From assembly GCA_944325615.1 (NCBI GenBank), contig CALVAU010000049.1, positions 1-34,811 of the forward strand: a stretch of 34,811 bases of DNA, read 5' to 3'. A model generated the notes under the pieces. It worked only from the letters and a program-made list of their open reading frames with translations. It was not told the origin of the DNA and ran no database searches. This document shows, in pieces, positions 649 through 34,811 of the stretch; the first letter of the stretch is position 1; each line of letters starts with the position of its first letter. A program made the translations under genes and the position numbers. Source of the stretch: Candidatus Gastranaerophilales bacterium (GTDB lineage Bacteria > Cyanobacteriota > Vampirovibrionia > Gastranaerophilales > Gastranaerophilaceae).

Positions 649-1464
649 CTAATATCCGCAAGCACGCCAAAAAGCACCATGTAAACCTATTGTTCTATGT
701 ATTGTAAAATTGGTTTTTGTAATGTTTGGATCTATTTGTGCACCGAAATCGTTGTATGCTTTAATATATTTTCCAGATAACAGAATGTTACAAAACGTGG
801 TGTTAAATGTTTTAGGAAATGTTACAATATCAGGTTCGGTTGCAAGTGTAGTGAAACCTCCTTGTTCTATCCATCCGTCAGACCATACCCTATACCAAGC
901 AGTATCTGAAATATAGTTTTCTATAACAACCGCAGGTCTAGTGCTTGAGGCAGTTGCTTCGTTTGTGGCATTGTCAGATGCCCAGTGTTTTGATAAATAA
1001 CTTGTTGTGACGATTTTGTCAGATTCATCCGAGTAATCTTCTGTATAAGTAGGACAAGTTGCATAACTTATACCATTTGTGTTTCTGATGCACAATTTGC
1101 CTAATTCAGAACCGTCTTCATTTGCTGCTGTAAGCATAGTTTCGTTATACCCAGCTCCGTTTGTCATTCTTAAAGAACCGCAAATTCTTTTAGATGTATT
1201 CATCATAATAATTGCATCTGAGTTTTTGTTATCAGCAACGTTAGGTATGATTATGTTACCACCTGTTGTGTCTTGAATTACAGCAGAATATATCGGTTTA
1301 GTAAATGTTTTTTGACCGGTAAGTGTTGATTCTGTGTTTTCATGAACGGTTGTTGAGTTATTTTCATCTATTTTATCAGCGAGAGCATTAAAATTTGCAT
1401 TTACTTCCTGAGCTTTAGCTTTGGTGCCGGGTGTAAATGAATATGGTATCAAAGAATTTGTCAT
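649..1464 (-). CDS. phage tail-fibre / receptor-binding protein-like
   Basis: The N-terminus PYSFTPGTKAKAQEVNANFNAL is the typical prophage tail-fibre N-terminal motif. The C-terminal WYRVWSDGWIEQGG...FPKTF resembles tail-fibre tip domains. An SD GGAAAGG lies upstream. Confidence 0.7.
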   Translation of the reverse strand: MTNSLIPYSFTPGTKAKAQEVNANFNALADKIDENNSTTVHENTESTLTGQKTFTKPIYSAVIQDTTGGNIIIPNVADNKNSDAIIMMNTSKRICGSLRMTNGAGYNETMLTAANEDGSELGKLCIRNTNGISYATCPTYTEDYSDESDKIVTTSYLSKHWASDNATNEATASSTRPAVVIENYISDTAWYRVWSDGWIEQGGFTTLATEPDIVTFPKTFNTTFCNILLSGKYIKAYNDFGAQIDPNITKTNFTIHRTIGLHGAFWRACGY

Positions 1465-7626: not shown

Positions 7627-7656
7627 TGAATTATAGTTTTTTGGTAAGGTGTGGTT

Positions 7657-9384: not shown

Positions 9385-9397
9385 AGGTATAAAAAAT

Positions 9398-10939: not shown

Positions 10940-11583
10940 AAATAAATATTCTTATAGTTGAAGACCATGAATTAACTCGTTTCGGATTAAAAACGACTTT
11001 TGAAGGCGTTGATTATGTAGAAAATATTTACGAGGCAGAATCAGCGGAGAAAGCTATTGAGGTATTTCAAGCAAATCCTATTGATGTTGTAATTATGGAT
11101 TTGGGGCTTCCAAATATGAACGGTATCGAAGCTACAAAACAAATTCGTTCTTTCAATAAAGATGTAAAAATAATTATTTTAACTTCTCATAACGATGAAA
11201 AAGAAGTGATGAACAGCTTAAAAGCCGGAGCTAATGCTTATTGCTCAAAAGAAATTAATCCGCAAAGACTTGTTGCAGTTGTGCAGTCAGTAGCTGATGG
11301 TGCTGCTTGGTTTGACCCTAGTATTGCGCATATTGTGCTGAAAGCAACAACAACATCAAGCAAATTTGATTCAGATTCAAATTGTAAAGATTATGAATTG
11401 ACTTCAAGAGAAAAACAAATATTGAAGCTTATGACAGAAGGGTATTCAAATATGGAAATAGCACAGCTTTTAGTCATAAGTATAAATACAACAAAAGCGC
11501 ATGTCGCAAGTATTTTGCAGAAATTAGAAGTTGACGACAGGCTTCAAGCTGCATTAAAAGCCCTAAAAAATAATATCGTGTAA
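10936..11583 (+). CDS. response regulator, NarL/FixJ type (REC + LuxR HTH)
   Basis: REC residues are intact (VEDHE, VIMDLGLP, ILTSH, CSKE). C-terminal LTSREKQILKLMTEGYSNMEIAQLLVISINTTKAHV. An ATGA overlap joins it to the TPR gene stop. Confidence 0.9.
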   Translation: MKINILIVEDHELTRFGLKTTFEGVDYVENIYEAESAEKAIEVFQANPIDVVIMDLGLPNMNGIEATKQIRSFNKDVKIIILTSHNDEKEVMNSLKAGANAYCSKEINPQRLVAVVQSVADGAAWFDPSIAHIVLKATTTSSKFDSDSNCKDYELTSREKQILKLMTEGYSNMEIAQLLVISINTTKAHVASILQKLEVDDRLQAALKALKNNIV

Positions 11584-11593
11584 AGGAATTAAG

Positions 11594-12226
11594 ATGTCTG
11601 CATTGGCAAATGTATTGTTAGTCGATGACAATCCTAAATATCTGAAAGATGCCCTGCCATATTATGGGTATAATGTTCGTGTTGCAATAGACGGGATTCA
11701 GGCACTTGAGATTCTTACGACCGAAAAAAGTAAATTTGATATTATTCTTTTAGATGTAATGATGCCAAACCTTGACGGGTGGGAAACGTTAAAGGCTATA
11801 AGAAAATTAGATAAAACAAAATATATTCCGATAATTATGATAACAGCTCTTTCTGAGGAGCAAAAAGTTGTAGCAGGCCTAAAAAACGGTGCTGATGATT
11901 ATATTACAAAGCCGTTTGTCTTACCAAATCTTTTAGCACGTATGGAAGCAGTATTAAGAAGAACGGAATGGGCAGAGCAGGCAAAAAGTTCAATATCAGA
12001 ATTACCGTTTAAGTCAAAAGCTCCGCTTAAAACTCTTACGAATAGAGAATTAGAGGTCTTGACATTGGCTGCGAAAGGTGCAAATAATAAAGATATTGCC
12101 GAAAAATTAGTTTTAAGAGAGGTTACAGTCAAGAGTCACCTTAATAGTATCTTTAAGAAACTGAACGTAACTAGTCGTACACAGGCAGTATTACTGGCGA
12201 TGCAGATGGATTTGATAAAAAATTAA
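11594..12226 (+). CDS. response regulator (REC + LuxR-type HTH)
   Basis: LLVDDN, ILLDVMMP, MITAL and DYITKPF, followed by LTNRELEVLTLAAKGANNKDIAEKLVLREVTVKSHL. AAGGA SD after a 10-nt gap. Confidence 0.9.
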   Translation: MSALANVLLVDDNPKYLKDALPYYGYNVRVAIDGIQALEILTTEKSKFDIILLDVMMPNLDGWETLKAIRKLDKTKYIPIIMITALSEEQKVVAGLKNGADDYITKPFVLPNLLARMEAVLRRTEWAEQAKSSISELPFKSKAPLKTLTNRELEVLTLAAKGANNKDIAEKLVLREVTVKSHLNSIFKKLNVTSRTQAVLLAMQMDLIKN

Positions 12227-19010: not shown

Positions 19011-19950
19011 CCCAAGACCGGAAATTTTAGCAAAATATTTGCGCGGGACCCTTGTTGAAGAAGAGCATTACGGCTTTAGAATGCTGGCAGACAATGACAG
19101 AGTCATTGAATATAGCGGAGAAACCGGTAATTATCCGTTTTATCTTAATTCTTGTGCTAATCCATTAATAGCATCATTAATAGTTGATTATGGTATGGAT
19201 GTTAAATATGATATGACATTGGAAGAAATTGCCATAAGCTGTTCTTCTCATACCGCAGAAAATTTGCATATAGAATTAGAAAAATCTTTATTAAATAAAA
19301 TAGGTGTAGATGAAAAATTATTAAAATGTGGTGTAAGCAGACGTTTGCCTGATCATAAGTATAAAGATGTTTTGTTTGATGCAGAAAATGAAAGCGTGTT
19401 GCAAAATGGCTGTGCTGCTAAACATATTATGATGCTTGGCTTGTGTAAAATGAATGGGTGGAATATGGAGAATTATGATAACTTAGAACATCCATTACAG
19501 GTTAAAATAAAGGAAAAAATCATTGATTTATGCAGGTTAAAACATAGATTTCCAATTACAAAAGATTTTTGTGGCTTACCTGCAATGTCAATGCCTCTTG
19601 AAAATGTTTTGTGGGGGTATTTGAAAATTTTTACGGATCCGCGTTATCAAAAAATTTCTGAGGCGTTTTTGAATTATCCCGATATAATAGGCGGCAAAAA
19701 TCGGCTTGATACAAAGATTATTAAATGTTCAGATAATATAATTGCAAAAGCAAGCACCTGCGGGATTTGTGTGGTAGTCAATGTCGAAAAACAAGAAGCT
19801 TTAGTCGTAAAAATTAGCGATAGCAATATGGATACGCTTGAAGCCGTAGTTGTAAAATCATTGAATAATCTGCATTGGACAGATATTCCTTTTGAGTATT
19901 TAATAAAAACTTTTCATAATGAAATTGTTGGAGAAATTGTTGTACTCTAA
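19003..19950 (+). CDS. asparaginase II (Rhizobium-type) family homologue
   Basis: RGTLVEEEH, SCSSHTAENLHI, NGCAAKH, HPLQ, DFCGLP, GGKNRLDT and VKISDSN align with my recollection of this family's conserved blocks. It overlaps the upstream gene by 8 nt. Confidence 0.6.
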   Translation: MFNPRPEILAKYLRGTLVEEEHYGFRMLADNDRVIEYSGETGNYPFYLNSCANPLIASLIVDYGMDVKYDMTLEEIAISCSSHTAENLHIELEKSLLNKIGVDEKLLKCGVSRRLPDHKYKDVLFDAENESVLQNGCAAKHIMMLGLCKMNGWNMENYDNLEHPLQVKIKEKIIDLCRLKHRFPITKDFCGLPAMSMPLENVLWGYLKIFTDPRYQKISEAFLNYPDIIGGKNRLDTKIIKCSDNIIAKASTCGICVVVNVEKQEALVVKISDSNMDTLEAVVVKSLNNLHWTDIPFEYLIKTFHNEIVGEIVVL

Positions 19951-21284
19951 GAAGTTTTTATATGAACATCGACAACTTTTTCTCTGTTATTTGTAACTAA
20001 AAAAGTTGGTTTTTGTATTGGTAAAGTCATAATTTCACCGTTTGGCTTTTTGACTAATTGACATCCCATAAGTTCATTTGTAGTTCTGAAAAATTCACTC
20101 TTGTTTTGTGCGGCATATAGTCCTTTTGTGTAATTTTCGTATAATTTTTGAAGAACTTTTTGCGGCATTTGAGAGGGTTTGTAGCCTGTAAAAAGTATCA
20201 TATCATTTATTCTGCGTTTGCATAGTCCGGCTTGTACATCGCCGCCTGCAGATCTGTGATCAAATTCCATTGCTGCTTTATAAAAACAAGCCGCTGCTTT
20301 TTTAGGATTTCTGTTTTTTTGTGCGCAGCCATCGTTAATATATTTTATAAGTTTTTTACTTTTTGCAATAGCATTTTCACCGATATTGAATGTTAAATCT
20401 ATCAAAGCTTCTTTTTGTTTTTGATTCAGTTTGTGATAACTGTCTCCGAAAATTTTTATTAATCCGTTTTGAGCATCGATTATATCTTTGGCTAATATTT
20501 GATAGATTTGTTTGTCTGATAATTTGTAGCCTTGAGCTTTCAATCTTTTATATTTATTTAGCTCAGATTTTGGTCTGCAAGCCAAATCATGTCCGATACC
20601 TATTACAGGTCTTTTTATTGCATCAGGAGTAAGCTCTCTTTTAATACCTTCAAATTCTGCAAGTTTATCTATAAAATCTGAGCTTATACCTGTTAATTTG
20701 CAAACATCAGATATTGTTGATATTTTAGCTAATTGCTTATCATCCACGTTTTGCAATATAGGTTTTGGACGATTGGGAATTTCTATTTTATCAGCTTTTA
20801 CTTCAGAGGGTTTTTCTTTTGTCTTAGGGGGAAGAGGTGGCTGAGTTTCAATTGGTTTCTCAAACTGTTTTTTGAAATTTTCTGTTGGTTTTGTATAGAC
20901 ATAATAAATTTCATTTTGTGAAATTGTAGCTTTTTTATTATTGATTTTATTAAGTTCCAAAAATTCTTTTACTGTCATTCCGAATTTTGTCGCAATAGAA
21001 TATGCAGAATCTCCCTTTTTAGCTTTATAGCCCGGAACATTGAATTTTGTTCCAGCTGGTATTGATAATTTGGGGTTTTCAAAATATTTTTTCAGTTGAG
21101 GGTTGTTTTTTACCAAATCTTTTTTATCAATTTTAAATTTTGAAGTAATACTTCCCCAACCTTTGCCTTTTTCAAGAGTGTATTCTCCGATGTAATCGGT
21201 TTTAGCTGTTTTATCGGGCTTACCTTTTATTATTTCATTGAACTCAAATGTGTTTAGAAATAAATTGTAATCAAATTCTGCCAT
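19947..21284 (-). CDS. 2x LysM + GH24-type lysozyme, no signal peptide
   Basis: Two LysM-like segments (YTLEKGKGWGSITSKF.., YKAKKGDSAYSIATKFGMTVKEFLELN), a Pro/Lys linker, and EFEGIK...VIGIGHDL of phage-type lysozymes. Confidence 0.75.
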   Translation of the reverse strand: MAEFDYNLFLNTFEFNEIIKGKPDKTAKTDYIGEYTLEKGKGWGSITSKFKIDKKDLVKNNPQLKKYFENPKLSIPAGTKFNVPGYKAKKGDSAYSIATKFGMTVKEFLELNKINNKKATISQNEIYYVYTKPTENFKKQFEKPIETQPPLPPKTKEKPSEVKADKIEIPNRPKPILQNVDDKQLAKISTISDVCKLTGISSDFIDKLAEFEGIKRELTPDAIKRPVIGIGHDLACRPKSELNKYKRLKAQGYKLSDKQIYQILAKDIIDAQNGLIKIFGDSYHKLNQKQKEALIDLTFNIGENAIAKSKKLIKYINDGCAQKNRNPKKAAACFYKAAMEFDHRSAGGDVQAGLCKRRINDMILFTGYKPSQMPQKVLQKLYENYTKGLYAAQNKSEFFRTTNELMGCQLVKKPNGEIMTLPIQKPTFLVTNNREKVVDVHIKTS

Positions 21285-24452: not shown

Positions 24453-27200
24453 ATGTTAGTAGGAAAAATTCAACAACCGATACAACCAAAGTTTAAAGAC
24501 AAAGGTGAGGTATCTCAAAAGCAGGTGCCCTTAATACAATCGTCAGTTTCCGAGCACATGTCCTCAAATTCAAGTTTAAATAAGAGTCCTTTAAAAACGA
24601 ATTCAAATGAGTTAGCTTTTAAAGGCTCTTTTTTTAGTCTGTATAAAGAGGTCGGAAAAACTGATATTAATAAATTTTTAAAAGAGATGGATGAGCCGCT
24701 GGACGGCATGGTAAGACATCTTTATGATGCGGTTATTAAATCAAACCTCGTGAAAACCGAAGGTAATACAGTCATCGTTTCTAAAAAGACCATTCCTGCT
24801 CTTATCGGGAATGGTTTTTCAGATCCGTTCTTAAAATTTCCGGGTGATATTTTGAACGGAGTAGTTGAAGGACTTGGACATATAAAACCGCTTCAGGGCT
24901 GGGCTGAAAAAACTCTTGAGCAGCCAATGTTCAAAAAAATCAGGCAGCGTTCAAAAATTGATTATGAAGTAAATGCCTTTCAAGGACTTCTTGATTTCAA
25001 AAAAATGACTTTGAGTGATGCTTTAAAAAACGAAGCTCAAAAGTTGGGTGTCAAAGTTGAAGAATTATCGGATGAGGTGAAAGCAAAAGTAGAACAGGAT
25101 GTAGATAAAAATATGCAATGGCATATTTTCCAACGTTCTATGAAACCTTTTGATTCAAAAGTAGGTAATTATGATACAAAACATGAAAGAGCTTTGAACA
25201 GATTAGTTTCAGGGCTTCCACCAGCTATATTTTTGGCAAATGATGCTTATAACTTATCTCGTATGATGGATGACAATCCGAATGAAGCTAAAAAAGAAAG
25301 ACGCACAAGGTTCAAACAAGAAGTTTCAAGAATTTTGATGAGTGGTTATTTAACTTTAATCACAATGGGTGCGTTAAGCAAGCTTATAAATAATTCCAAA
25401 ATGGGTATTATGTTGAATACAGGAATAACAGTTCTGTTTACCGAAATGTATTCACGTTTACGCAACGGAAAATATGTAACAAAATTAACTCCTGAACAGG
25501 CAAGAAGAATTAATGAAAAAAATCATGCTCCTGAAGCTGCAATTAAGCCTGAAAAGTTAAGTTTTAAATCAAATTCAGAAAAAACAAATTCAAAGGAAAA
25601 AACTCAAAAACCGCTATTATCTTTTGATACGCTTGTTAAAGCAAGTTTAGCATCAATTGCAATAGGATTTTCATTGAAAGGCTTGAGAAAGATTCCGAAA
25701 GTTGATGCTGCGTTTGAGGCATTCTTCAAACCTTTTAATAAATTTTATAAAAATATTGCAGAAATTTCTGATTACAAAGTTTCGCAAGATAAAATTGATG
25801 AAGTAGCAAATGTATTGATTGATCAAGGTTTCAAAACTAGAGGTAATCAATATAAACAGGTTGCAATTCGTTCAAGAGAACTTGTAGTAGAAAAAGTGAT
25901 GAATGAGTTAAACAAAACGATTGATATCAAATCTATAAATAATTTCTTGAGTAATCTTGAGAAAAAAGATGTTCATTCGGAAGTTCTTAAAAAGAATTTA
26001 AGTTCATTAATAGCTATTTTAGAAAAGAATGAATATAAAGATTTGGTATCAAAGTATCGCTATAAAACGATTTCAAGCTTAAAAAATGATACTGCACTAA
26101 AAACTGAGCTTTTGAAAGTTAAAGATGAGTTACAGAACATAGGGCAAGCTAACAGTCAGTTAATTGAAAAAATTAATAAGAACGGCTTGAATAAAATTTC
26201 AGATAGTGATTTTGAAACTGAAATTAAAAAAGCTCTTGAAAAAGTAGGAGATAAAGACGGTAAATTATTTAATGATTATTCAGATGCTCTGAAAGGACTT
26301 GTAAATTTCGGAGTAAGAGATAAAAAAGTAAAACCATTCGTAAACTTTGTAATTACACCATTCTCATTTATGTGGAGTGTTGTTAAATTCCCATATAAAA
26401 TCGCAAATGGTATTGCTGAATTATTTATGAAAAAGCCTCCGAAATCTCAAAAATCAATGGATGCTTTGAATATGGAAGCAGTTTCAAAGAGTTTTGATAA
26501 AATATACGAGCAAGTTGGAAAATACAAAAAAGCTATAGCAAGTACAAATGATCCAGCTATGAAACAAAAATATTGTAAGAAATTCCAAGACTTTGTAATG
26601 GATAATACTTTGAAAGCTTTCAATGTAAATACAATGTCAAATTTATCAAACAGTGATCTTTCAAATCTTGCAAAAACTGCAGCAACAGCCTCTACAATTT
26701 GGTTCTTGATGACGGATAACTACAACATGGTTATGTTGAAATCAAACGGTAACGATGTAGAAGGCGCTGAAACTAAATTTAAAGAAAGATTTGTCCAAGA
26801 AGGTTCAAGACTATTCTATCAGACAATGTTGATTGACTTATTCAACAAAACATTCCAAAAACAATACCATAGTTCATTGATGGGTATGAGTTGGATTACA
26901 TTGACTAATACAACAATCGGTGAATGGCTGACAAGAAAATCAGTAGGTGTTCCGATTGGAATGCATACAAGAAATGAATTGTTGAAGTTGGAAGAAGAAC
27001 AAAACAATGCAACTGGTTTCAAAAGAGATTACTATCAATTTATGAAACGCTTAACAGGTAAACGTTCAATCCAATCTTATAATGTAAGTAATAAAAATAT
27101 TGATACTCAAACAAACCAAATTGCTTCAACAACAACTCAACCAAAGTCTGAATTGAATTTTACAAACAGCCATACATTCAATAAAATGATTAAAGGTTAA
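24453..27200 (+). CDS. 915-aa uncharacterised membrane-associated protein with an internal duplication
   Basis: GGAAGGA SD and one long uninterrupted ORF. There are two related hydrophobic modules (about 25224-25470 and 26694-26945). I recognise no family motif. Confidence 0.75.
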   Translation: MLVGKIQQPIQPKFKDKGEVSQKQVPLIQSSVSEHMSSNSSLNKSPLKTNSNELAFKGSFFSLYKEVGKTDINKFLKEMDEPLDGMVRHLYDAVIKSNLVKTEGNTVIVSKKTIPALIGNGFSDPFLKFPGDILNGVVEGLGHIKPLQGWAEKTLEQPMFKKIRQRSKIDYEVNAFQGLLDFKKMTLSDALKNEAQKLGVKVEELSDEVKAKVEQDVDKNMQWHIFQRSMKPFDSKVGNYDTKHERALNRLVSGLPPAIFLANDAYNLSRMMDDNPNEAKKERRTRFKQEVSRILMSGYLTLITMGALSKLINNSKMGIMLNTGITVLFTEMYSRLRNGKYVTKLTPEQARRINEKNHAPEAAIKPEKLSFKSNSEKTNSKEKTQKPLLSFDTLVKASLASIAIGFSLKGLRKIPKVDAAFEAFFKPFNKFYKNIAEISDYKVSQDKIDEVANVLIDQGFKTRGNQYKQVAIRSRELVVEKVMNELNKTIDIKSINNFLSNLEKKDVHSEVLKKNLSSLIAILEKNEYKDLVSKYRYKTISSLKNDTALKTELLKVKDELQNIGQANSQLIEKINKNGLNKISDSDFETEIKKALEKVGDKDGKLFNDYSDALKGLVNFGVRDKKVKPFVNFVITPFSFMWSVVKFPYKIANGIAELFMKKPPKSQKSMDALNMEAVSKSFDKIYEQVGKYKKAIASTNDPAMKQKYCKKFQDFVMDNTLKAFNVNTMSNLSNSDLSNLAKTAATASTIWFLMTDNYNMVMLKSNGNDVEGAETKFKERFVQEGSRLFYQTMLIDLFNKTFQKQYHSSLMGMSWITLTNTTIGEWLTRKSVGVPIGMHTRNELLKLEEEQNNATGFKRDYYQFMKRLTGKRSIQSYNVSNKNIDTQTNQIASTTTQPKSELNFTNSHTFNKMIKG

Positions 27201-27399
27201 TTTGATTATATTCAATATGATAACCTGTTTTAGAAAAATTCTTTAACAGGTTATCTTTTTTCCACCAGAAAAATCCGATTACTAATGCTGCGATTAGTAT
27301 TATTGTAAAAAGTATTTTGGTAACTACTTTTAAAATTTTACCGATAATTATAATTGCTATAATGATAGCAAGTCCGATTAAAATAATTGTTAAATCCAT
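27190..27399 (-). CDS. small two-TM membrane protein (69 aa)
   Basis: TAATG overlap with the plsY stop. Two hydrophobic helices are present. The C-terminal 20 codons run through the convergent gene's terminator, so the true 3' end and expression are uncertain. Confidence 0.45.
   Translation of the reverse strand: MDLTIILIGLAIIIAIIIIGKILKVVTKILFTIILIAALVIGFFWWKKDNLLKNFSKTGYHIEYNQINL
27219..27261 (+). terminator. intrinsic terminator of the 915-aa gene
   Basis: 11-bp stem GATAACCTGTT (27219-27229) pairs with AACAGGTTATC (27245-27255), followed by T6. Confidence 0.8.
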
Positions 27400-28007
27400 T
27401 ATTGTCTCACTTTGTTTTCTTCACCTTTAATAAGTCTTTGAATGTTAGATCTGTGAAGATATATTATATAAATAGCACCTAATGCGCAATAGGCAATGTA
27501 TGCAATAGGTTGATTAAATAAATACATAAGAATTGGAGAAAGTGCAAGTGCTATTATTGAACCAAGTGAAACATATTTTGATGTGTATGTGATGATACCC
27601 CAAATCGCTGCAATAATAAGTCCTACAATCCAGTTAAGGGCAAGAATTGTACCAACGCCTGAAGCTACAGATTTTCCGCCTGTAAATTTTAAAAATATAG
27701 ATTTACTATGTCCTAAAATCACCGCAACAGCAGCAAGCACAGGTAAAAGCCCAATTCCTGTAAATGTTGTTGCAAAAAGTTTTGCTAAAATAACAGGCAA
27801 AGCACCCTTAAAAGCATCAAGAAGAAGGGTTATGAAAAACCACTTTTTCCCCATCACTCTTTTTACGTTAGTAGCTCCTGTAGATCCTGAGCCGATTGTT
27901 CTAATGTCTTGACCTGTTGCAAGTTTAACTATTATATACCCTGTCGGGATAGAACCTATTATGTATGCACCTAATATTACAGCTATTAATTCAATATAAT
28001 TTTCCAT
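27399..28007 (-). CDS. plsY: glycerol-3-phosphate acyltransferase PlsY
   Basis: GSGSTGATNVKRVMG plus multiple TM helices. The ATG at 28007 (MENYIEL) is preceded by AAGGAG. Confidence 0.9.
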   Translation of the reverse strand: MENYIELIAVILGAYIIGSIPTGYIIVKLATGQDIRTIGSGSTGATNVKRVMGKKWFFITLLLDAFKGALPVILAKLFATTFTGIGLLPVLAAVAVILGHSKSIFLKFTGGKSVASGVGTILALNWIVGLIIAAIWGIITYTSKYVSLGSIIALALSPILMYLFNQPIAYIAYCALGAIYIIYLHRSNIQRLIKGEENKVRQ

Positions 28008-28081
28008 AAAATTCTCCTTTATAAAACCGATTTTAGCATAATTGATAAAAAAAGTCATATTGTTAAAATTACACTAAAAGA

Positions 28082-28110
28082 TTGATTTAAAGGGGGCGAT
28101 ATGATAATAT
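28082..28110 (+). promoter_or_regulatory. sigma70-type promoter with an extended -10, upstream of the vWA operon
   Basis: TTGATT (28082-28087), a 17-nt spacer ending in TGa, then TAATAT (28105-28110). Confidence 0.5.
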
Positions 28111-28146
28111 TATATTAAAATGATATATTAGTAGAATGAGAGAGTT

Positions 28147-28818
28147 ATGAATAATAAAAGATTAATCACAATTGGAATTTTAATAGTTGCATTATCAGTA
28201 GTGGGTAAATTGTTATGGTCAGCAATGTCCAGAGTTAAAGTAGATGATTTTAAACCAGCTGCTGTTATGTTTTTAGTAGATTCTTCAGCTTCAAATCAAA
28301 AAGCTTTGGATGATCAGAAGAAAACTCTGAGACAAATCTGTAATCTTCTTGATCCTGAAGATCAAATAAAAATCTTAAGAGTATCAGAAGATGCTTATTT
28401 AATTTATGAAGGTACACCATTTAACGGTTCAGGCATAACAAAAGCTTTAGATGCTTTTACTGCTTATGATAGTAAGGACTATGGCACCGCTTATGGTATT
28501 GCATTGAAAAAAGGTTTCAATCACGCTCTAGCAATGCAAAAAGAAGGTTATACTCCTGCAATAGTCGTATTGGGAGATTTGGAAAATGAAGGTGCGGTAG
28601 AAAAACAGATAAATTGGGAATTATTACCTAAGAACGTTGAAAATGCAAAACAATATATGCCGGGTCTTGCTATGATGTTTTTGTATGCTCATCCTGAAAA
28701 ATTAGATATGGTGAAGGAAAAACTAAATCCGGTATTGGGTGAAAAACAGCTTATAGTTTCACCGGAACAAAATACTGACAAAGCAATCAGACAGTTTATT
28801 CACGCTTTGGGCAGATAA
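28147..28818 (+). CDS. membrane-anchored von Willebrand factor A (vWA) domain protein
   Basis: N-terminal TM helix ITIGILIVALSVVGKLLW. MIDAS positions are present: VDSSAS (DxSxS), YGTAYG (Thr) and VVLGDLENEG (Asp). Alternating beta/alpha pattern. Confidence 0.7.
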   Translation: MNNKRLITIGILIVALSVVGKLLWSAMSRVKVDDFKPAAVMFLVDSSASNQKALDDQKKTLRQICNLLDPEDQIKILRVSEDAYLIYEGTPFNGSGITKALDAFTAYDSKDYGTAYGIALKKGFNHALAMQKEGYTPAIVVLGDLENEGAVEKQINWELLPKNVENAKQYMPGLAMMFLYAHPEKLDMVKEKLNPVLGEKQLIVSPEQNTDKAIRQFIHALGR

Positions 28819-28859
28819 GATAAAAATAATTTTATATTACAAAACATGAGGAAATTTTT

Positions 28860-30470
28860 ATGACAATTGTTGTATCATCTTCAAAACAAGAAAAGGTATT
28901 TGATGAAAAAGATGTGATAAATATTGGTACAAATCCAAATTGTGACTTTTTGTTGGAATTGGATTTTGATCTGTTATTAACTCTTCAATATGACAAAAAT
29001 GAAAATAAATGTGTTTTGATTAACACTTTCCATAGTGATAAAGTTCTTTTCAAAGGCCAACCTATTAAGAAAGTTGAAATCGGAAATATTTGTAAAATAA
29101 TGTTTGCGAACAGCAATGAGTTTTTGAATATCAAAATTCTTGATAATGTACCGGTTAAGAAGACTGTATCAACAATTGCTAAAGAAGATTTGACCGAAGA
29201 AGATATGAAAAAACTTTGTGGTAACGATCCAAATGCCGTTACAAGATTAAAGCTTGAAAAACAAAGAGCAGATATTGAAGGTATGCGAGTTGCAATTATA
29301 AAACAAGTTGCTTTTCAAATTAATGATTTGAAAAACAAAATTGGTTCTAATACAAGAACTAATGTGTTTTTGCATTTTGCCATGGCAATAAGCTCAATTT
29401 TATGTGCATTTGGTCTTGCTAACTATTTGATGGGCTTATCAATTAAAGAATCTGCAAATTATCTGCATATGCCAACAAATATAAAAGTTTGGGTTGCATA
29501 TTCTATACTTGTTTTTGGTGCAGCGTTGCTATTGAAACAAGGAGTTTACTTGTTCTTGCAAAGTTCAAATGATAAAAATATTTCACCAACAGCAAAATTT
29601 GCGCAAGGATTTATGGTTGTTTTATCACTTATATTTATGTTGGGTATTTATGTTGTAAACCTTGTATATTATATGAATTTAAGTGATTTTATGACATTTG
29701 CTGTATTTGTTTCATTGTTCTTCTCAGGACTTTTAACAGCATTGTCTTTAGGCTGCGGATATTTCAAACATACTTCAGGTGAATGGGCTGTAACACTTAA
29801 TAAATATGAATACCGTGAAGATTTTGAAGCGGTATTGAAATCATACAGACAATGGATTGAAAGATATATAAACAGTTTTTCAAAAACAAAAATTCAAAAT
29901 ATAAAAGATAGAATATTTAACTTACAATTAAAATCAATAACGGAAGTTGTAGTTGGTATTTTAACAGCACCATTCTTAGCTTATGGTGTGTCAAACACTC
30001 TTGCAATGTGTTTCCCTGAAGCTGCAGGTTGGATAAGAATTTCAGGATTAAGATTTTCACCTGTGTTCTTGGTATTAGCAACATTTTTGATTATCTTTGC
30101 ATTTTTCTCATTCGTTGCAGCTTTTACAGCTACCAAAAAAATTCAAGCTTCTCAGGTAATCAAACAAGATGGTTTTAGCGATTACAGACAACACGGTGTA
30201 AGTATTTTTGGTCTAGAGGGTACAAGAAAGCTTGAGTCAGATAGAAGAAGATCTTTATTTATCGGATGTTCAATAATTTTCATTGAATTTACAATGAACA
30301 TATCATATTTTGCAACAGAAATCGGTGGAGATTTACAAGGTTTGTTTTTAAGCTTTGTAGCAGCTCTTGTACCGACAGCGCTTTTGATTGCTGAAACATT
30401 TATGCTTTCTCAAACAATGTTTGATGTATATGCAAGTGATGAGTTAATTGCAAAACTTGATAAAGATTAG
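28860..30470 (+). CDS. FHA-like N-terminal domain fused to an ~8-TM membrane domain
   Basis: GAGGA SD. The N-terminal ~95 aa has FHA-like strand spacing (VINIGTNPNCDFLL...VLINTFHSDKVLFKGQPI...IGNICKIMF) but lacks the conserved R/S/H/N residues. Eight hydrophobic helices lie between residues ~165 and 520. Confidence 0.6.
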   Translation: MTIVVSSSKQEKVFDEKDVINIGTNPNCDFLLELDFDLLLTLQYDKNENKCVLINTFHSDKVLFKGQPIKKVEIGNICKIMFANSNEFLNIKILDNVPVKKTVSTIAKEDLTEEDMKKLCGNDPNAVTRLKLEKQRADIEGMRVAIIKQVAFQINDLKNKIGSNTRTNVFLHFAMAISSILCAFGLANYLMGLSIKESANYLHMPTNIKVWVAYSILVFGAALLLKQGVYLFLQSSNDKNISPTAKFAQGFMVVLSLIFMLGIYVVNLVYYMNLSDFMTFAVFVSLFFSGLLTALSLGCGYFKHTSGEWAVTLNKYEYREDFEAVLKSYRQWIERYINSFSKTKIQNIKDRIFNLQLKSITEVVVGILTAPFLAYGVSNTLAMCFPEAAGWIRISGLRFSPVFLVLATFLIIFAFFSFVAAFTATKKIQASQVIKQDGFSDYRQHGVSIFGLEGTRKLESDRRRSLFIGCSIIFIEFTMNISYFATEIGGDLQGLFLSFVAALVPTALLIAETFMLSQTMFDVYASDELIAKLDKD

Positions 30471-30482
30471 AAATGATGCGAA

Positions 30483-31379
30483 ATGAAACGGTTGAAAGGT
30501 TTTATAGTATTTTTATATATCTTTTTAACAGTACTGGTGTTAATAATACATCCAGTAATGCATAAGCCTGTTTCGCTTGAAAGTATGAATTTTAAAATTC
30601 AAGATCAGTTGATGAACCCACAACCTAGAGTAGTTTCGGATTTTGAGGTAAAAGTAAAGTTTACTGTAACTCATAAAAATGTTGCAAAAGCTCCTGATAA
30701 AACCATACATATCAAACCGGATGATGATAAACGGCTCTCATTTGATATAAATTCCTCTACTCAGGAAATTCAGCAGACTGATATTGAGTTAGAGGACAAT
30801 TCTTCATACAGTACATCTGAAATAGATATGAATATGGAAGATCAAAGTTCGTATCAGGAACAAAATGTAAACTTCTCTGATCAGGAGATGCTTTTTACGG
30901 ATCAAGATTTGAAAATCGCGGATATGGACCGTCCGACAGCAGGGCGAGACATAACAATGGAAATTCCTGAGGACAATGTTGAGCTCAAAGATAGTGATGA
31001 AGTCGGAAATCGTAAGTTTAAAGGTTCAAGAGAAGAGGTAATTGCATGGAATGTATGGCGCAGTAATCTTCAAAATAGAATAATGGATGAATCAGCTATA
31101 GAAGCTCCTGTCGGTACGTTGATATTGTTTAGTTTTGATGTCTCAGAGACCGGTAAAATTACAAATTTAAGCTACACTTGTTCAAGTAAAAAATATGCGG
31201 TTGCAGCAAAAGCTGATATGGTCAGTATATTAAAAAGACTGGAAGGGGATTCTGTACTTAATTTCCCTGATAATACAAAACGAAAAAAAGTAAGATTTAA
31301 AGGCGGATTTTTATTAGATTATTCAACTCAATATTCTTCACCTGAAGATTATTCAGATTATGAAAGGGTTAGATTATGA
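30483..31379 (+). CDS. TM-anchored protein with an acidic spacer and a TonB_C-like C-terminal domain
   Basis: TM helix FIVFLYIFLTVLVLIIHPV. EDNSSY/EDQSSY low-complexity region. The C-terminus W..WRSNLQNRI...GTLILFSFDVSETGKITNL...AVAAKADMVSIL...P follows the TonB_C pattern. Confidence 0.6.
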   Translation: MKRLKGFIVFLYIFLTVLVLIIHPVMHKPVSLESMNFKIQDQLMNPQPRVVSDFEVKVKFTVTHKNVAKAPDKTIHIKPDDDKRLSFDINSSTQEIQQTDIELEDNSSYSTSEIDMNMEDQSSYQEQNVNFSDQEMLFTDQDLKIADMDRPTAGRDITMEIPEDNVELKDSDEVGNRKFKGSREEVIAWNVWRSNLQNRIMDESAIEAPVGTLILFSFDVSETGKITNLSYTCSSKKYAVAAKADMVSILKRLEGDSVLNFPDNTKRKKVRFKGGFLLDYSTQYSSPEDYSDYERVRL

Positions 31380-31522
31380 TGAATAAAAAAACATTTCTGG
31401 TTACTGCAGTTGCAGTTCTCGCAGTGGCTATGCTATGTACAACATTTATAATTACAGGGCTAAAACCGCAGATGCATAAATCATTTATGCTGGAAATTAT
31501 AAATGTGAAAATTAAAAAATAA
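31376..31522 (+). CDS. 48-aa single-pass membrane protein, absent from the ORF track
   Basis: ATGA overlap with the upstream stop. My hand translation gives MMNKKTFLVTAVAVLAVAMLCTTFIITGLKPQMHKSFMLEIINVKIKK. Confidence 0.5.
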   Translation: MMNKKTFLVTAVAVLAVAMLCTTFIITGLKPQMHKSFMLEIINVKIKK

Positions 31523-31524
31523 TA

Positions 31525-31533
31525 TGGTATAAT
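31525..31533 (+). promoter_or_regulatory. extended -10 element (TGgTATAAT) 10 nt upstream of the ATG at 31544
   Basis: TGGTATAAT at 31525-31533. No SD lies between it and the ATG, which implies a nearly leaderless transcript if the element is active. Confidence 0.3.
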
Positions 31534-31543
31534 AAATTCAGAT

Positions 31544-32194
31544 ATGTATAGATGTAAAGAATGTAAAAGTTTATATAAAGAAAAAATAGATTATTGTGAT
31601 TGCGGAAATAATGTATTTGAAGAAATTCCGGATGCTCCGATAAATCCAATAAAAGAAACTTCTGATGATAGAGAAGTTGAACTAAGACGACCGATTTTAC
31701 CTGTAAATTGGTTGTCATTGATAGTATTTTCATTGTGTTGTATTTTTTCTTTGTGTTTTATATTATTTTTAGGACCTGAGCCAAAGAAAAAAGAGAAAAC
31801 CCCGACTACAAAAGAAAAAGTAGTAGTAAAAGATATTCCTGATATTGATAAAATTTGGGATGATACACCTGCATATAAGGTTAGTTCAAGTTCAGTTTCA
31901 GATTTAGATATGTATAAAAGCGGTCTAAGAAACGCTCTAATGGCTAATCTTGATACTATTGCAATTGCGGGTGAGGGTACTTGTGAAATTCAGTTCTTTT
32001 TGGATGATCATGGTAATTTGAAAAAGAAAAAGCTTTATCAAAATACTGCCAATAAACCTTTAACTAATGCCGTTAAAAAAATGCTATCTGCAGTAAAAAA
32101 ATATAATCCGCCACCACAAGGTTATGAAGGTTCTACAATAATAATGGAAGTCATCGGTAGTGGTGAAAATTATCAATTACGTTACAAAAATTAA
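31544..32194 (+). CDS. zinc-ribbon / TM / TonB_C-like domain protein
   Basis: CKEC-x10-CDC at the N-terminus. TM helix LSLIVFSLCCIFSLCFILFLG. PEPKKKEKTPTTKEK linker. The C-terminus YKSGLRNALMANL...GTCEIQFFLDDHGNL...NAVKKML...P is TonB_C-like. Confidence 0.6.
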   Translation: MYRCKECKSLYKEKIDYCDCGNNVFEEIPDAPINPIKETSDDREVELRRPILPVNWLSLIVFSLCCIFSLCFILFLGPEPKKKEKTPTTKEKVVVKDIPDIDKIWDDTPAYKVSSSSVSDLDMYKSGLRNALMANLDTIAIAGEGTCEIQFFLDDHGNLKKKKLYQNTANKPLTNAVKKMLSAVKKYNPPPQGYEGSTIIMEVIGSGENYQLRYKN

Positions 32195-32278
32195 TTTTTG
32201 TAATTATTGTATATTTTTGTAAACTGTATTCATTGCGAAATTAAAGAATATTTCAGCAATATCCGAATACTTTTTTGT

Positions 32279-33820
32279 ATGGGAACTAATATACAATCAA
32301 ATTCGCCGTTATTGCAATTAATCCTGAAGAAGCAAATTTATGATTTGGCTATTTCTTCAGACAATGTTGTGCAAAATGATACTGTAAATAACGAAACTTC
32401 AGTCTCAAATATTGTTGATAAGATGATTGAGGCAAATAAAAATGCTACGATATATTCAATAGCTGATGATGCTGCTAAAAAAGCAACTGAATTGCAAATA
32501 CCTGAATTAGTTACAAAAACAGATAATTGTAGCGGTAAAATATTAAAAATTGAGGATGTTAACAATAACAAAAAAATAAAAACATCTTTATCAATATCTA
32601 TTGATGAACTGCCAGAACCCAAAATAGAAAATATAAAAAAGATAATTTACGATCTGCATCACAAAAAGCCTGATGATACACCAGATCCTGAAGATAAGCC
32701 TAAACCGTCATTTTTAGATGAATTTGATGATGTAGAGAGTATGTTTGAATGGCTTCATGAGAAAGACCCTACAATTTCAGCTGAAAATGGACTAACAAGA
32801 TCGCAATTGATTGCATTGACTCAAGATGATGTCTGGGAAGATGCTAATCATGACTTTTTTGGTTCTTTGAACAGAATATTCAATGTTTTGGATAAAGATT
32901 CCGATTCTATTTTGACTGTAGATGAAATAAAAAAATTAATCGGTGAAGAAATAGGCGACTCATACGATGATTATAAAGCTAAAGTTGATGCTTATGCAGC
33001 TGAATTAGAATCTTATTATGAAACATTAGATATTCAAGGTAAACTGGAATTTTCAATAGACAGGGCACGTGAGTATTTTGAAGCTGCAGGATTATATGAG
33101 CAGCTTGAAGCTTTGGAACGTCTGGTAAACGGTGTAGATCAATACAGTGATGTAAAAGTAGGAAATATTTCCATAAGAGATTTAAACCCGGATTATAAAG
33201 GTGAAGAAGGCGAGCGTGTAACCTTTGGGGCTTATTCTATGGAAGCTTGGGTGGAAGAACATAACGGCGGAAATATAAAAATGTTTGCAAGTGATTATGA
33301 TACTGCAGAGGTTGACCGAGGGTTGGTCTTGGATATAAGATTGTTGAATGGTAATTGGTATTCTTTTGTCGGGGTATTAATTCATGAATTGACACATGCA
33401 AAAGCTTTTCTTTATTCTTGGGCAGAAGAGCTCGGAGATGGTAATTATAAATATTCAAAAGCGAAAGCTTTAGAGGTAGCTCAAAGACTATATGATAATG
33501 GCATAATGTCAAAAGATGAATATGATTATTATAAAGATAATATTGCTTCAATAAGTTTTAATTCAGAAGAGTTTAAAAGATTAAAATATTTAGCATCTAC
33601 TGCAAGAGGGGAATATGCGGCATATCAGGCTGGTGCTGATTATGGGGATAGCGTTGCTGAAGATATTTACAAATCATATATTCCTATAGATGACAGATAT
33701 GTTTTTCAAATACCGGGTTTGACTGATGGTGTAAATGAAAAAAATGAGATAGATGAACATATAAAAGTCGGTTATCCTAATGAGGTTCTCCCTGATTGGA
33801 AATGGTGGAGTTACGCATAG
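32279..33820 (+). CDS. 513-aa EF-hand + HExxH (putative Zn-metallopeptidase) protein, no signal peptide
   Basis: EF-hand loop DKDSDSILTVDE. VGVLIHELTHAKAF, with a possible downstream Glu ligand (RGEYAAYQ). I prefer the ATG at 32279 to the track's TTG at 32207. No clear SD, so the start is uncertain. Confidence 0.65.
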   Translation: MGTNIQSNSPLLQLILKKQIYDLAISSDNVVQNDTVNNETSVSNIVDKMIEANKNATIYSIADDAAKKATELQIPELVTKTDNCSGKILKIEDVNNNKKIKTSLSISIDELPEPKIENIKKIIYDLHHKKPDDTPDPEDKPKPSFLDEFDDVESMFEWLHEKDPTISAENGLTRSQLIALTQDDVWEDANHDFFGSLNRIFNVLDKDSDSILTVDEIKKLIGEEIGDSYDDYKAKVDAYAAELESYYETLDIQGKLEFSIDRAREYFEAAGLYEQLEALERLVNGVDQYSDVKVGNISIRDLNPDYKGEEGERVTFGAYSMEAWVEEHNGGNIKMFASDYDTAEVDRGLVLDIRLLNGNWYSFVGVLIHELTHAKAFLYSWAEELGDGNYKYSKAKALEVAQRLYDNGIMSKDEYDYYKDNIASISFNSEEFKRLKYLASTARGEYAAYQAGADYGDSVAEDIYKSYIPIDDRYVFQIPGLTDGVNEKNEIDEHIKVGYPNEVLPDWKWWSYA

Positions 33821-33864
33821 TGTAATTTATTGTTAAATAAAATAAAAGAAACAAAAAAATCTAC

Positions 33865-33893
33865 TTGACAAAATGTTAGTCATGCCTTACATT
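33865..33893 (+). promoter_or_regulatory. orphan sigma70-type promoter
   Basis: TTGACA (33865-33870), a 17-nt spacer, then TACATT (33888-33893). No ORF follows it. Confidence 0.4.
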
Positions 33894-33899
33894 TATATT

Positions 33900-33974
33900 A
33901 TAGATTTGATTTACTATTAATTACCACCATTTGTAAGGGTATTATAATTTCTCTCGGCGACGGGAGATTTTTTT
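33900..33974 (+). ncRNA. candidate ~75-nt small RNA (promoter-to-terminator unit without an ORF)
   Basis: Bounded by the promoter at 33865-33893 and the terminator at 33950-33974. There is no start codon or SD inside. This is purely structural inference. Confidence 0.25.
33950..33974 (+). terminator. intrinsic terminator (GNRA-type tetraloop hairpin + T7)
   Basis: TCTCTCG-GCGA-CGGGAGA forms 7 bp including one G-U pair, followed by TTTTTTT. It may also terminate the 28.1-33.8 kb operon. Confidence 0.7.
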
Positions 33975-34152
33975 ATTGCCAAAAAACTTCTTGCCAAACT
34001 CCCATTTTTTCAAGTTTAGTTATGTGAGATTTAATTGTATGGGAACTTGTATTTAATATTTTGGCTATTTCTTTTTTTGTAAAATTTTGTTTTAATAACT
34101 CAAGAATAAACCTCTCTTGTTCTAAGAGAACTTTGTTTTCCTGTTTATTCAT
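33973..34152 (-). CDS. stand-alone LuxR/GerE-type HTH protein (59 aa), absent from the ORF track
   Basis: My hand translation gives MNKQENKVLLEQERFILELLKQNFTKKEIAKILNTSSHTIKSHITKLEKMGVWQEVFWQ. GGAG SD lies 5 nt upstream. Confidence 0.65.
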   Translation of the reverse strand: MNKQENKVLLEQERFILELLKQNFTKKEIAKILNTSSHTIKSHITKLEKMGVWQEVFWQ

Positions 34153-34232
34153 CGTATCTCCACTTTATAATTCCAACAATTAATGCTAGCATAAGGAATT
34201 TTACGATTGTATTGGCTGGTTGACCAATATTT

Positions 34233-34811
34233 TTAGTGGGAATTTAAGATAATAATAACAGCTCCAATTACAATGATGATAGAGCCTAAAAGTTTGCTTA
34301 AAATATTTTTTTCTTTGAACAGTTTCCATCCGAGTAATACATTCAAGATGACAGAGAGTTGAAATAAAGAAAGAGCATAAGATACGTTTATTCTTTCAAA
34401 TACAAATGCAGTGGAAAAAGTCATTATGCCAAAGCATAGAGCGGTAATAATGTAAATGATAGAAATATTTAATGCAGGCGGTTTAATTTTAGAGAAATTA
34501 TCTTTTAATAGTATAAGAAAAGAAAATACAGCTCCTAAAATACAAGTTGTGATTACAGAAAAGCTTACAGAAGATAGTAAAATGACTTTTTTTATAAAAA
34601 CGGCTTCTATTGCGGAAAAAATTAGTGCATAAAATCTGTATTGTACGTCTTTTCTTTTGAAAATTTCTTTAAAATTTAAAGTTCCAAAAATAAAATAACT
34701 TCCAAAAATAATCAAACAAATTCCAATCAGCCCGAAAATATTAGGAAATTCTCCAAGCAGAAATATAGCAAAGATCATCCCGATAATCGCTTTATAGGAA
34801 TTTATCGGGCC
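34233..34811 (-). CDS. EamA/DMT-family transporter, 5'-truncated by the window edge
   Basis: The frame is open to position 34811 (GPINSYKAIIGMIFA...). There are repeated TM helices, with the end of the first EamA repeat (LLGEFPNIFGLIGICLIIFGSY) and a complete second repeat. Confidence 0.8.
   Translation of the reverse strand, partial: GPINSYKAIIGMIFAIFLLGEFPNIFGLIGICLIIFGSYFIFGTLNFKEIFKRKDVQYRFYALIFSAIEAVFIKKVILLSSVSFSVITTCILGAVFSFLILLKDNFSKIKPPALNISIIYIITALCFGIMTFSTAFVFERINVSYALSLFQLSVILNVLLGWKLFKEKNILSKLLGSIIIVIGAVIIILNSH

Follow-up and report, generated by a model that had tools for sequence, protein, structure and literature searches.

A 34,811-nucleotide stretch of DNA from a Candidatus Gastranaerophilales bacterium (the window) contains a run of plus-strand genes for putative envelope proteins, and it raises the question of which of these genes belong together and what kind of system they encode. 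The organism belongs to the Melainabacteria, a non-photosynthetic sister lineage of Cyanobacteria that is common in human and animal guts and essentially uncultured. The six open reading frames (ORFs) of the run, P1 to P6, are located at 28147-28818, 28860-30470, 30483-31379, 31376-31522, 31544-32194 and 32279-33820. The intergenic gaps from P1 to P6 are 41, 12, -4 (an ATGA overlap), 21 and 84 nt. An original prediction, made from the sequence of this DNA, had described the same gaps and the same-strand order, which the ORF coordinates reproduce; its 'seven-gene' operon was a miscount, since six ORFs were listed. By combining locus comparison, profile searches and structure prediction, we found that the cluster consists of familiar periplasmic and adaptor domains around a membrane protein family, P2, that has no detectable relatives.

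P1-P5 form a conserved gene unit

A scan with one genome per species found 460 genomes that encode a relative of P2. The 80 best were used for the locus comparison, and all of these are metagenome-assembled genomes (MAGs) of Gastranaerophilales or Melainabacteria. With six further loci from metagenome assemblies they gave a set of 86 loci, against which the proteins of the window were compared by tblastn. The gene for P1 is located immediately upstream of P2 in all 86 loci (61-96% identity), and that for P3 immediately downstream of P2 in 85 (23-74% identity). P5 is encoded downstream of P2 in 78 loci, in one of them on the opposite strand (29-67% identity). Since tblastn found P4 in close relatives only, the interval between P3 and P5 was searched directly. 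In 76 of 80 loci there is a P4 counterpart of 43-50 aa with a single transmembrane (TM) segment, which starts at the P3 stop codon or a few nucleotides from it; public gene calls include P4 as a 47-aa gene in one related locus (L093). The 48-aa ORF, which had been proposed although it was missing from the ORF track, is therefore a genuine gene, and the analysis gains a validated micro-protein gene. Across the order Gastranaerophilales, P1-P2-P3-P4-P5 stay together as a tightly packed conserved unit. The unit ends at P5, which corrects the operon boundary. Synteny in the 86 loci upholds the idea of a co-conserved envelope gene set, and the set matches no named system.

Upstream of P2, plsY is found in 69 of the 86 loci (75-95% identity) and is divergent in all but two. 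Past the divergent plsY, a 915-aa ORF is found in 45 loci (41-83% identity). Across genera, the identities are 75-86% for plsY, 68-78% for P1, 65-72% for P2, 41-47% for the 915-aa neighbour and 24-31% for P3.

The minimal core of the cluster is made up of a VWA protein, the membrane domain of P2 and one or more anchored proteins of the TonB_C type. It is kept in loci where P2 is only 28-47% identical to that of the window (L087, L088, L095 and L096). Both L088 and L096 encode a VWA protein, the P2 core and a P3-like protein. In L095, the VWA and P2 genes are followed directly by a gene for a P5-like protein with a zinc ribbon and a TonB_2 domain. L087, on a contig with a GC content of 30%, encodes a VWA protein, the P2 core, a 633-aa protein (L087:9327-11228) and a P3-like protein. 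The 633-aa protein ends in a TM helix and contains a canonical FHA domain (Pfam E 9e-12) as well as a double zinc ribbon (E 2.5e-8). Its FHA domain also matches Pfam Yop-YscD_cpl, below the cut-off (E 4.4e-5). A kinase-like domain in the same protein scores 28.1 bits against a Pfam cut-off of 31.7 bits and, judged by eye, has neither an HRD nor a DFG motif, as in a pseudokinase. FHA and zinc-ribbon modules ride on different subunits in different lineages. The match between the P2 FHA domain and the canonical L087 FHA domain is not significant (E 0.36), so this 'domain migration' is a parallel at the fold level only; the P5 profile did not match the L087 zinc-ribbon protein.

The 633-aa protein ties the cluster evolutionarily to the theme of vWA, FHA and kinase modules. 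It also modifies the original prediction that the operon lacks all canonical partners. Pfam-type scans of the window found no MoxR, kinase, PP2C, ExbB/D or TonB-dependent receptor, in agreement with that statement, but the distant L087 cluster does encode an FHA/zinc-ribbon/kinase-like protein.

A gene that is not found in the window, coding for ~270-310 aa, lies directly before P1 in 50-65 of 82 loci (for example L001:8341-9276). It encodes a protein with a signal peptide and, at the C-terminus, a hydrophobic segment rich in Gly; one stretch of the protein weakly resembles TrbI/VirB10 (Pfam E 1.2e-5, under the cut-off). The gene may code for a sixth component, lost or moved in the lineage of the window.

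P2 combines an FHA fold with an eight-helix membrane domain of a new family

The AlphaFold2 model of P2, based on 25 homologues, has a predicted local distance difference test (pLDDT) score of 77. In this model, residues 1-94 fold into a beta sandwich and residues 124-190 into a continuous helix; about eight TM helices and a short hairpin (392-399) are also seen. The N-terminal domain (28860-29141, plus strand) adopts an FHA fold in the model. Its Foldseek match is the Rv1747 FHA-1 domain (E 7.6e-4, TM-score 0.75, root mean square deviation (rmsd) 2.4 Å), and other FHA matches are GarA, OdhI and Ki67. Pfam gave no FHA match for P2. Read from the sequence, the canonical Gly-Arg, Ser-x-x-His and Asn positions are replaced. 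The FHA-like N-module without phosphothreonine-binding residues that had been described for P2 is therefore confirmed, and the domain is predicted to be phosphothreonine-independent. It is followed by a long amphipathic helix (124-168), an 8-TM core (~169-515) and a conserved acidic C-terminal tail, LDKD (29229-30470, plus strand), so the predicted helical stretch and eight or so TM helices are seen both in the hydrophobic segments and in the model.

The residues that are invariant over 32 aligned P2 sequences, down to 28% identity, cluster in three zones. Zone 1 comprises TM5, the hairpin and TM6 (T369, P371, G376, S378, F385, P386, R393, G396 and P401). Zone 2 is in TM7 (I475, E476 and N480) and zone 3 in TM8 (P505 and T506). 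The FHA domain is N-terminal and has no signal sequence in front of it, and should therefore be cytoplasmic. With eight TM helices, both ends of P2 would then be on the cytoplasmic side, which agrees with a positively charged loop at residues 425-462.

P2 had no match in Pfam, NCBIfam or PADLOC, and its profile had a single chance match (E 0.72) among all PDB sequences. When the model was compared with the PDB by Foldseek, the FHA domain alone was matched and there was no credible fold for the TM part, which aligned with ABC and MFS transporters at an rmsd of ~20 Å. Alignment of TM1-4 with TM5-8 by hhalign revealed no internal repeat (probability 1%). An exact-sequence look-up of the window P2 in public assemblies found no match. 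Among 1.84 billion cluster representatives, the P2 profile had only 140 matches, mostly fragments of the P2 family itself. Full-length clusters that diverge from the window P2 are few (28-49% identity), and three of them, of 410-431 aa, have no FHA domain. P2 is thus a new protein family without detectable relatives, and it merits a family model of its own.

P1 is a membrane-anchored VWA protein

P1 (223 aa; 28147-28818, plus strand) has, as proposed, a TM helix at the N-terminus (residues 6-24) followed by a VWA domain whose metal-ion-dependent adhesion site (MIDAS) is intact. Its Pfam matches, VWA_2 (E 3.5e-8) and VWA (E 1.4e-5), both pass the curated cut-offs. The MIDAS residues D45, S47, S49, T114 and D144 are invariant in 84 homologues, distant ones included. 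The first VWA strand begins ~12 residues past the TM helix, leaving almost no linker. The TM helix (LITIGILIVALSVVGKLLW) contains no Asp and no His.

P3 and P5 end in TonB/TolA-like domains and P4 resembles the P3 anchor

The domains assigned to P5 by the original prediction are all supported. P5 (216 aa; 31544-32194, plus strand) contains a CxxC-x10-CxC zinc ribbon, a TM helix (residues 59-77), a Lys/Pro linker and a TonB_C domain (~117-200). The zinc-ribbon residues C4, C7, C18 and C20 are invariant. The window P5 itself is below the Pfam cut-off (TonB_2, E 1.5e-3), and the C-terminal domain is recognized at the level of the family: TonB_2 is matched by 14 of 16 members (best E 2.6e-7) and TonB_C by 12 of 16. 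In addition, hhalign aligns the C-terminal domain of P5 with domain III of E. coli TolA (E 5.7e-4). F62 and C65 are the only invariant residues in the TM helix. The order of these elements suggests that the zinc ribbon is cytoplasmic and that, past the single TM helix, the Lys/Pro-rich spacer leads to a TonB_C domain in the periplasm.

P3 (298 aa; 30483-31379, plus strand) has a TM anchor, a conserved juxtamembrane T-x7-P-x-M-H motif, a disordered acidic linker and a TonB/TolA-like C-terminal domain (~180-290). In the AlphaFold2 model, the C-terminal domain has a pLDDT of 70-91 and the linker one below 50. The TonB_C-like nature of this domain, which had been claimed from the sequence, is supported but not proven. 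It is backed by an hhalign match to the P5 TonB_C domain (E 2.6e-5, probability 75%) and by the best PDB folds in Foldseek, which are FusB (a TonB homologue, probability 0.98), the H. pylori TonB C-terminal domain, TolA III, HasB and BtuB-bound TonB. However, none of these Foldseek matches has an E below 1e-3, P3 has no match in Pfam, and its comparison with E. coli TolA was negative. T16, P24 and H27 are the residues that do not vary in or near the TM helix, and the His lies at the boundary to the periplasm.

P4 (48 aa, single-pass; 31376-31522, plus strand) is probably translationally coupled to P3 because their reading frames overlap in an ATGA. P4 shares a motif with the P3 N-terminus (T-x6-K-P-q-M-H-K-x3-L-E in P4 and T16-x7-P24-x-M-H27-x4-E in P3) so that it resembles a separate copy of the membrane anchor of P3. 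The N-termini of both proteins are basic before the TM helix, which would place the linker and C-terminal domain of P3 in the periplasm.

Two further kinds of gene accompany these proteins in other genomes. In 20 loci (for example L024, L028 and L036), an extra conserved ORF with two TM segments (59 aa; range 54-67) is present between the P4 and P5 homologues; it is characterized by the motifs E-x-P-F and R-Q-T-A and is not found in the window. Downstream of the cluster, many genomes encode on the opposite strand a secreted protein of ~240 aa with a signal peptide and a TonB_2-type C-terminal domain (L033:12696-13436, minus strand, and 37 loci; also L001:13615-14334, minus strand). TonB_C-like modules seem unusually abundant around the locus.

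P6 lies outside the conserved unit

The features that had been read in P6 (513 aa; 32279-33820, plus strand) are present as motifs: an EF-hand-like loop, DKDSDSILTVDE (DxDxDx6E), and the HExxH motif HELTH, in a protein with no signal peptide or TM segment. Its Pfam matches are below the cut-off (EF-hand_6, E 0.0025; Aspzincin_M35, E 0.093), and no relative was found in the PDB. The P6 family comprises ~56 clusters of 500-630 aa with the EF-hand-like loop, HExxH and no signal peptide, and two of 56 clusters carry a precomputed PF13499 annotation.

P6 is encoded after P5 in one of the 86 species-level loci (50% identity). It follows the cluster solely in the closest relatives of the window (L008, L093 and L094), and a homologue in L091 (7001-8728) sits between unrelated genes. 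P6 is therefore a recent, lineage-specific local addition and not a component of the cluster, a role that synteny rules out. Its proposed membership of the operon falls with this result, and its proposed role as a Ca-regulated metallopeptidase, the cargo or processing enzyme of the cluster, is not supported. The P6 family appears to be confined to the same lineage, with a genomic position that shifts between genomes, and P6 may be a mobile or fast-evolving effector-like gene.

Transcription signals and neighbouring genes

The divergent intergenic region between plsY and P1 contains a possible sigma-70-type promoter, TTGATT-N17-TGaTAATAT (28082-28110, plus strand), read directly from the sequence. 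The motif is present as described in the original prediction, but such matches are no commoner in this AT-rich stretch than in shuffled sequence (43 versus 36.4 ± 5.9), and it is statistically indistinguishable from the AT-rich background. An intrinsic-terminator-like element (33950-33976, plus strand) consists of a hairpin with a 7-bp stem and 4 GC pairs (33950-33967) followed by a T-run, TTTTTTTATT. It is the sole terminator-like site on the plus strand within 27300-34400, which agrees with the earlier statement that no hairpin terminator occurs before ~33950, and it is common to the cluster and a convergent LuxR-type gene.

The window has a low GC content (~32%), and its genes mark it as chromosomal DNA of a Gastranaerophilales member (Melainabacteria/Vampirovibrionia); wherever a source names the closest relatives of its proteins, they bear such names. 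Around the cluster it contains housekeeping and regulatory genes for prephenate dehydratase, phosphoglucomutase, DAHP synthase, QueH and a VKOR-DsbA fusion; asparaginase, UPRTase, MlaD, PNP, response regulators and plsY are also encoded near the cluster. Rfam and tRNA scans of the window revealed no RNA family and no tRNA. The 915-aa ORF (24453-27200, plus strand) has no strongly hydrophobic segment and no match in Pfam, NCBIfam or PADLOC. Directly downstream of plsY lies a 69-aa hydrophobic ORF (27190-27399, minus strand) with a tblastn match in 26 of the 86 loci (42-63% identity). Public gene calls at L093 have a 71-aa gene in its place, and it is probably a real small membrane protein.

Three other ORFs are not syntenic with the cluster. 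They encode an RHS-repeat protein (3926-5959, plus strand), a 271-aa protein (649-1464, minus strand) with a weak match, below the cut-off, to a tail-fibre gp53-like C-terminal domain (E 5.9e-4), and a protein with LysM and phage-type lysozyme domains (19947-21284, minus strand). A separate same-strand block (7651-12226, plus strand) encodes a GAF-HD (HD-GYP-like) protein, a TPR protein and two tandem LuxR-type response regulators. No histidine kinase was found in the window.

Discussion

The anatomy and synteny of P1-P5 are consistent with the original proposal of an inner-membrane platform with two TonB_C-type arms. The reading that we favour, tentatively and at somewhat less than an even chance, is that P1-P5 form a lineage-specific complex anchored in the inner membrane, a Ton/Tol-like trans-envelope tether on a non-homologous inner-membrane core. 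Such a complex would couple the cytoplasmic membrane to the peptidoglycan or the outer membrane, as Ton and Tol do. P2, with its eight TM helices, would be the membrane hub. The buried Glu476/Asn480 pair in TM7, together with Ser378 and Pro505/Thr506, could form a site for an ion, a proton or a ligand. The P2 FHA domain may serve as a phospho-independent docking or oligomerisation module on the cytoplasmic face, where the P5 zinc ribbon would also be located and would share in phospho-independent control; in the distant L087 cluster, both elements are carried by the separate FHA/zinc-ribbon/pseudokinase protein. P3 and P4 probably dock at one site on P2 through their T...P-x-M-H motif, and P5 may dock on P2 through its TM or juxtamembrane segment. 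P3 and P5 would span the periplasm on low-complexity linkers of variable length and grip a partner in the outer membrane or the wall with their TonB/TolA-type C-terminal domains. P1 would contribute metal-dependent adhesion through a MIDAS domain held near the membrane.

P1 and P2 are conserved nearly as strongly as the housekeeping protein PlsY. This points to a core rather than an accessory envelope role, which might be, for example, a Tol-Pal-like function in outer-membrane tethering or constriction. Together with the presence of relatives in 460 species-level genomes, it makes the cluster a likely part of the basic envelope biology of Melainabacteria. Inner-membrane-tethered vWA proteins have been proposed as periplasmic force transducers beside TolQ-like motors, together with TolA/TonB (PMC12204202, Mol Biol Evol 2025), so a vWA force-transducer theme is not far-fetched. 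A literature search for a Ton/Tol system of Melainabacteria or for the P1-P5 cluster returned nothing relevant.

Several observations weigh against a Ton/Tol-like tether. P2 has no similarity in sequence or fold to the MotA/ExbB/TolQ stators: its hhalign comparison with E. coli TolQ was negative (probability 0.3%), and ExbB, TolQ and MotA are not among its top 50 Foldseek matches. The TM helices of P1, P3 and P5 carry neither the SHLS/His signature of TonB/TolA nor the Asp signature of ExbD/TolR. It is ambiguous on which side of the membrane the VWA domain of P1 lies: positive-inside counts conflict from one homologue to another, and a possible lipobox (LVSC) is present in the L087 copy. No outer-membrane partner was identified for the cluster. 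TonB_C-like domains are also found in proteins that do not transduce force.

If trans-envelope coupling without an ExbB, TolQ or MotA relative does occur here, it would widen the known range of energy and signal links between the inner membrane and the outer layers of diderms, and the cluster would be a concrete candidate for outer-membrane tethering in Melainabacteria. In a bolder version, which we regard as quite improbable, P2 would be an ion-driven energiser or hub in the inner membrane that bears no relation to the 5:2 stators of the MotA/ExbB/TolQ type and founds a new class of its own. Through P2, energy from the membrane would then reach the two TonB/TolA-type arms and the MIDAS adhesin, and Melainabacteria would use the device in place of Tol-Pal/Ton to tether and constrict the outer membrane.

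Other explanations account for parts of the same evidence. P1-P5 could be a transmembrane signalling scaffold of the vWA/FHA/zinc-ribbon type, akin to ArnA-ArnB and the vWA-STK-FHA-PP2C modules, in which the periplasmic TonB_C-like and VWA domains sense the envelope and the FHA domain and zinc ribbon recruit or release a cytoplasmic regulator, with no force involved. Pairing of vWA and FHA domains, also with a zinc finger, is known in signalling (PMC6509490; bioRxiv 10.64898/2026.01.23.701218), the L087 cluster holds the FHA/double-zinc-ribbon/kinase-like protein, and the FHA domain and zinc ribbon move between proteins as adaptors would. However, the Gastranaerophilales cluster has no conserved kinase, phosphatase or transcription factor, the P2 FHA domain has lost the phosphothreonine-binding residues, and the L087 kinase-like domain falls below the cut-off and has no HRD or DFG motif by eye. 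A signalling scaffold would also leave the strongly conserved 8-TM core, with its invariant intramembrane Glu, unexplained, and we hold it to be a serious but rather unlikely alternative. P2 could instead move an envelope precursor or an ion, as a new kind of transporter or flippase, with P1, P3, P4 and P5 as accessory proteins that pass the substrate to or from the periplasm or the outer membrane. The eight TM helices with invariant intramembrane polar or charged residues (E476, N480, S378 and T506) would suit such a function, as would the lipid and envelope gene neighbourhood, with plsY adjacent in most loci and MlaD and MlaA-like genes nearby. Yet P2 resembles no transporter family in Pfam, NCBIfam or the PDB, its distance from ABC and MFS exporters in Foldseek is large, the internal repeat typical of transporters was not found, and no ATPase is present. 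We hold a transporter to be unlikely.

The original prediction had also considered a novel secretion or export route with P6 as cargo or processing enzyme and other signal-less proteins of the window as clients. P6 is encoded on the same strand, 84 nt past P5 and with no terminator between them, its position is kept in the close relatives, and it has no signal peptide or TM segment. Against this, P6 is absent from this position in nearly all species-level loci, its homologue in L091 is found at an unrelated locus, and its EF-hand and peptidase matches are sub-threshold. No ATPase, secretin, outer-membrane channel or other secretion component is present. The proposed clients fare no better: the RHS and LysM-lysozyme proteins are not syntenic with the cluster, and the 915-aa protein, the only frequent neighbour among the three, is encoded beyond the divergent plsY. 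Synteny has largely refuted such a route, and we give it very little weight. Finally, the adjacency of P1-P5 might reflect no more than gene order frozen among close genomes, without a functional link, since the wider neighbourhood (MlaD, PNP, an rpoZ-like gene, the 915-aa ORF and plsY) is also syntenic among the MAGs. But the triad of VWA, P2 and TonB_C-like protein persists amid different surroundings at 28-47% P2 identity, domains migrate between the cluster proteins, and the reading frames overlap or nearly abut; frozen order is scarcely credible.

How does a Ton/Tol-like tether compare with known systems? The original prediction named Bat, Tol-Pal and TerY-type operons as possible homes for the cluster, and we found that none of them fits. 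A Bat/aerotolerance or TerY system is rejected because its required partners are absent. The cluster has a single VWA gene, and no AAA+ (MoxR-type) or DUF58 match, as expected for Bat operons (MoxR, DUF58, BatA-D), was found in the window or the syntenic loci. A defence system is likewise rejected, given the fixed chromosomal position beside plsY and the result of the PADLOC-DB search, in which P1-P5 had no match at E <= 1 and P6 had a chance-level match only (E 0.089). In defining features, the cluster departs from Ton, Tol-Pal, Bat, TerY/ArnAB-type modules, the PMC12204202 transducers and PADLOC defence systems.

The closest parallels for the vWA and FHA domains are the archaeal pair of ArnA (zinc finger-FHA) and ArnB (vWA) and the bacterial vWA-STK (Ser/Thr kinase)-FHA-PP2C operons, such as Deinococcus DRA0331-0334 and the TerY-type triads. 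As in these modules, vWA, FHA and zinc ribbon occur side by side, the genes for the VWA and FHA-fold proteins (P1 and P2) being adjacent in 86 of 86 loci, and the distant L087 cluster adds a kinase-like domain. In contrast, those modules are soluble, cytoplasmic and driven by phosphorylation, whereas the cluster proteins are all membrane-anchored, its FHA domain has no phosphothreonine residues, an active kinase or phosphatase is missing, and the novel 8-TM domain is its defining part. The P2 FHA domain is not of the phosphothreonine-competent kind, neither a kinase nor a PP2C was found in the window or the Gastranaerophilales loci, and the kinase-like domain is seen in L087 only.

Secretion machines also contain phospho-independent FHA scaffolds, namely the cytoplasmic domain of YscD/PrgH in the type III secretion system and the FHA domains of EssC, together with the EssB pseudokinase, in the type VIIb secretion system. 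P2 resembles these as a membrane protein with a fused FHA fold that has no phosphopeptide-binding residues, and L087 pairs an FHA domain with a pseudokinase-like domain and a TM anchor. The cluster differs in that it encodes neither an FtsK-type ATPase nor ring-building periplasmic domains, and secretion substrates and chaperones are missing as well. Among the vWA transducers described in PMC12204202, a VWA domain on a single N-terminal TM helix is likewise encoded beside inner-membrane proteins. Those are found beside tolQ-like genes and carry either an SHLS/His motif with a long linker or an Asp-bearing trans-pore helix; P1 has no tolQ-like neighbour, no Asp or His in its TM helix and almost no linker.

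The cluster differs from Ton and Tol in several ways. P2 is not homologous to ExbB, TolQ or MotA, and the cluster encodes no ExbD/TolR-like protein. Members of the MotA/TolQ/ExbB family and ExbD were found neither in the Pfam scans of the window nor in the gene tables of the related loci, to which this search was confined; the rest of the genomes was not searched. Of the Tol-Pal set TolQ-TolR-TolA-TolB-Pal, a TolA-III-like domain alone is detectable, and the window has no TolB, Pal or OmpA-like gene. There is also no TonB-dependent receptor, TolB or Pal gene near the cluster. Judged by eye, the TM helices of P3 and P5 have no SHLS/His motif and a juxtamembrane P-x-M-H is found instead, and P5 has an additional cytoplasmic zinc ribbon. 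There is also a likeness to Ton and Tol. A TM-anchored TonB C-terminal domain with a periplasmic spacer, a feature of Ton, is found in the P5 family and, by fold and profile only, in P3. In P5, and less certainly in P3, a TM anchor at the N-terminus is joined by a periplasmic spacer, of low complexity or rich in Pro/Lys, to a C-terminal domain of the TonB_C/TolA-III type, and these anchors are encoded beside a polytopic inner-membrane protein, P2, with an invariant intramembrane carboxylate. We classify the cluster among the trans-envelope systems based on TonB/TolA-type anchors.

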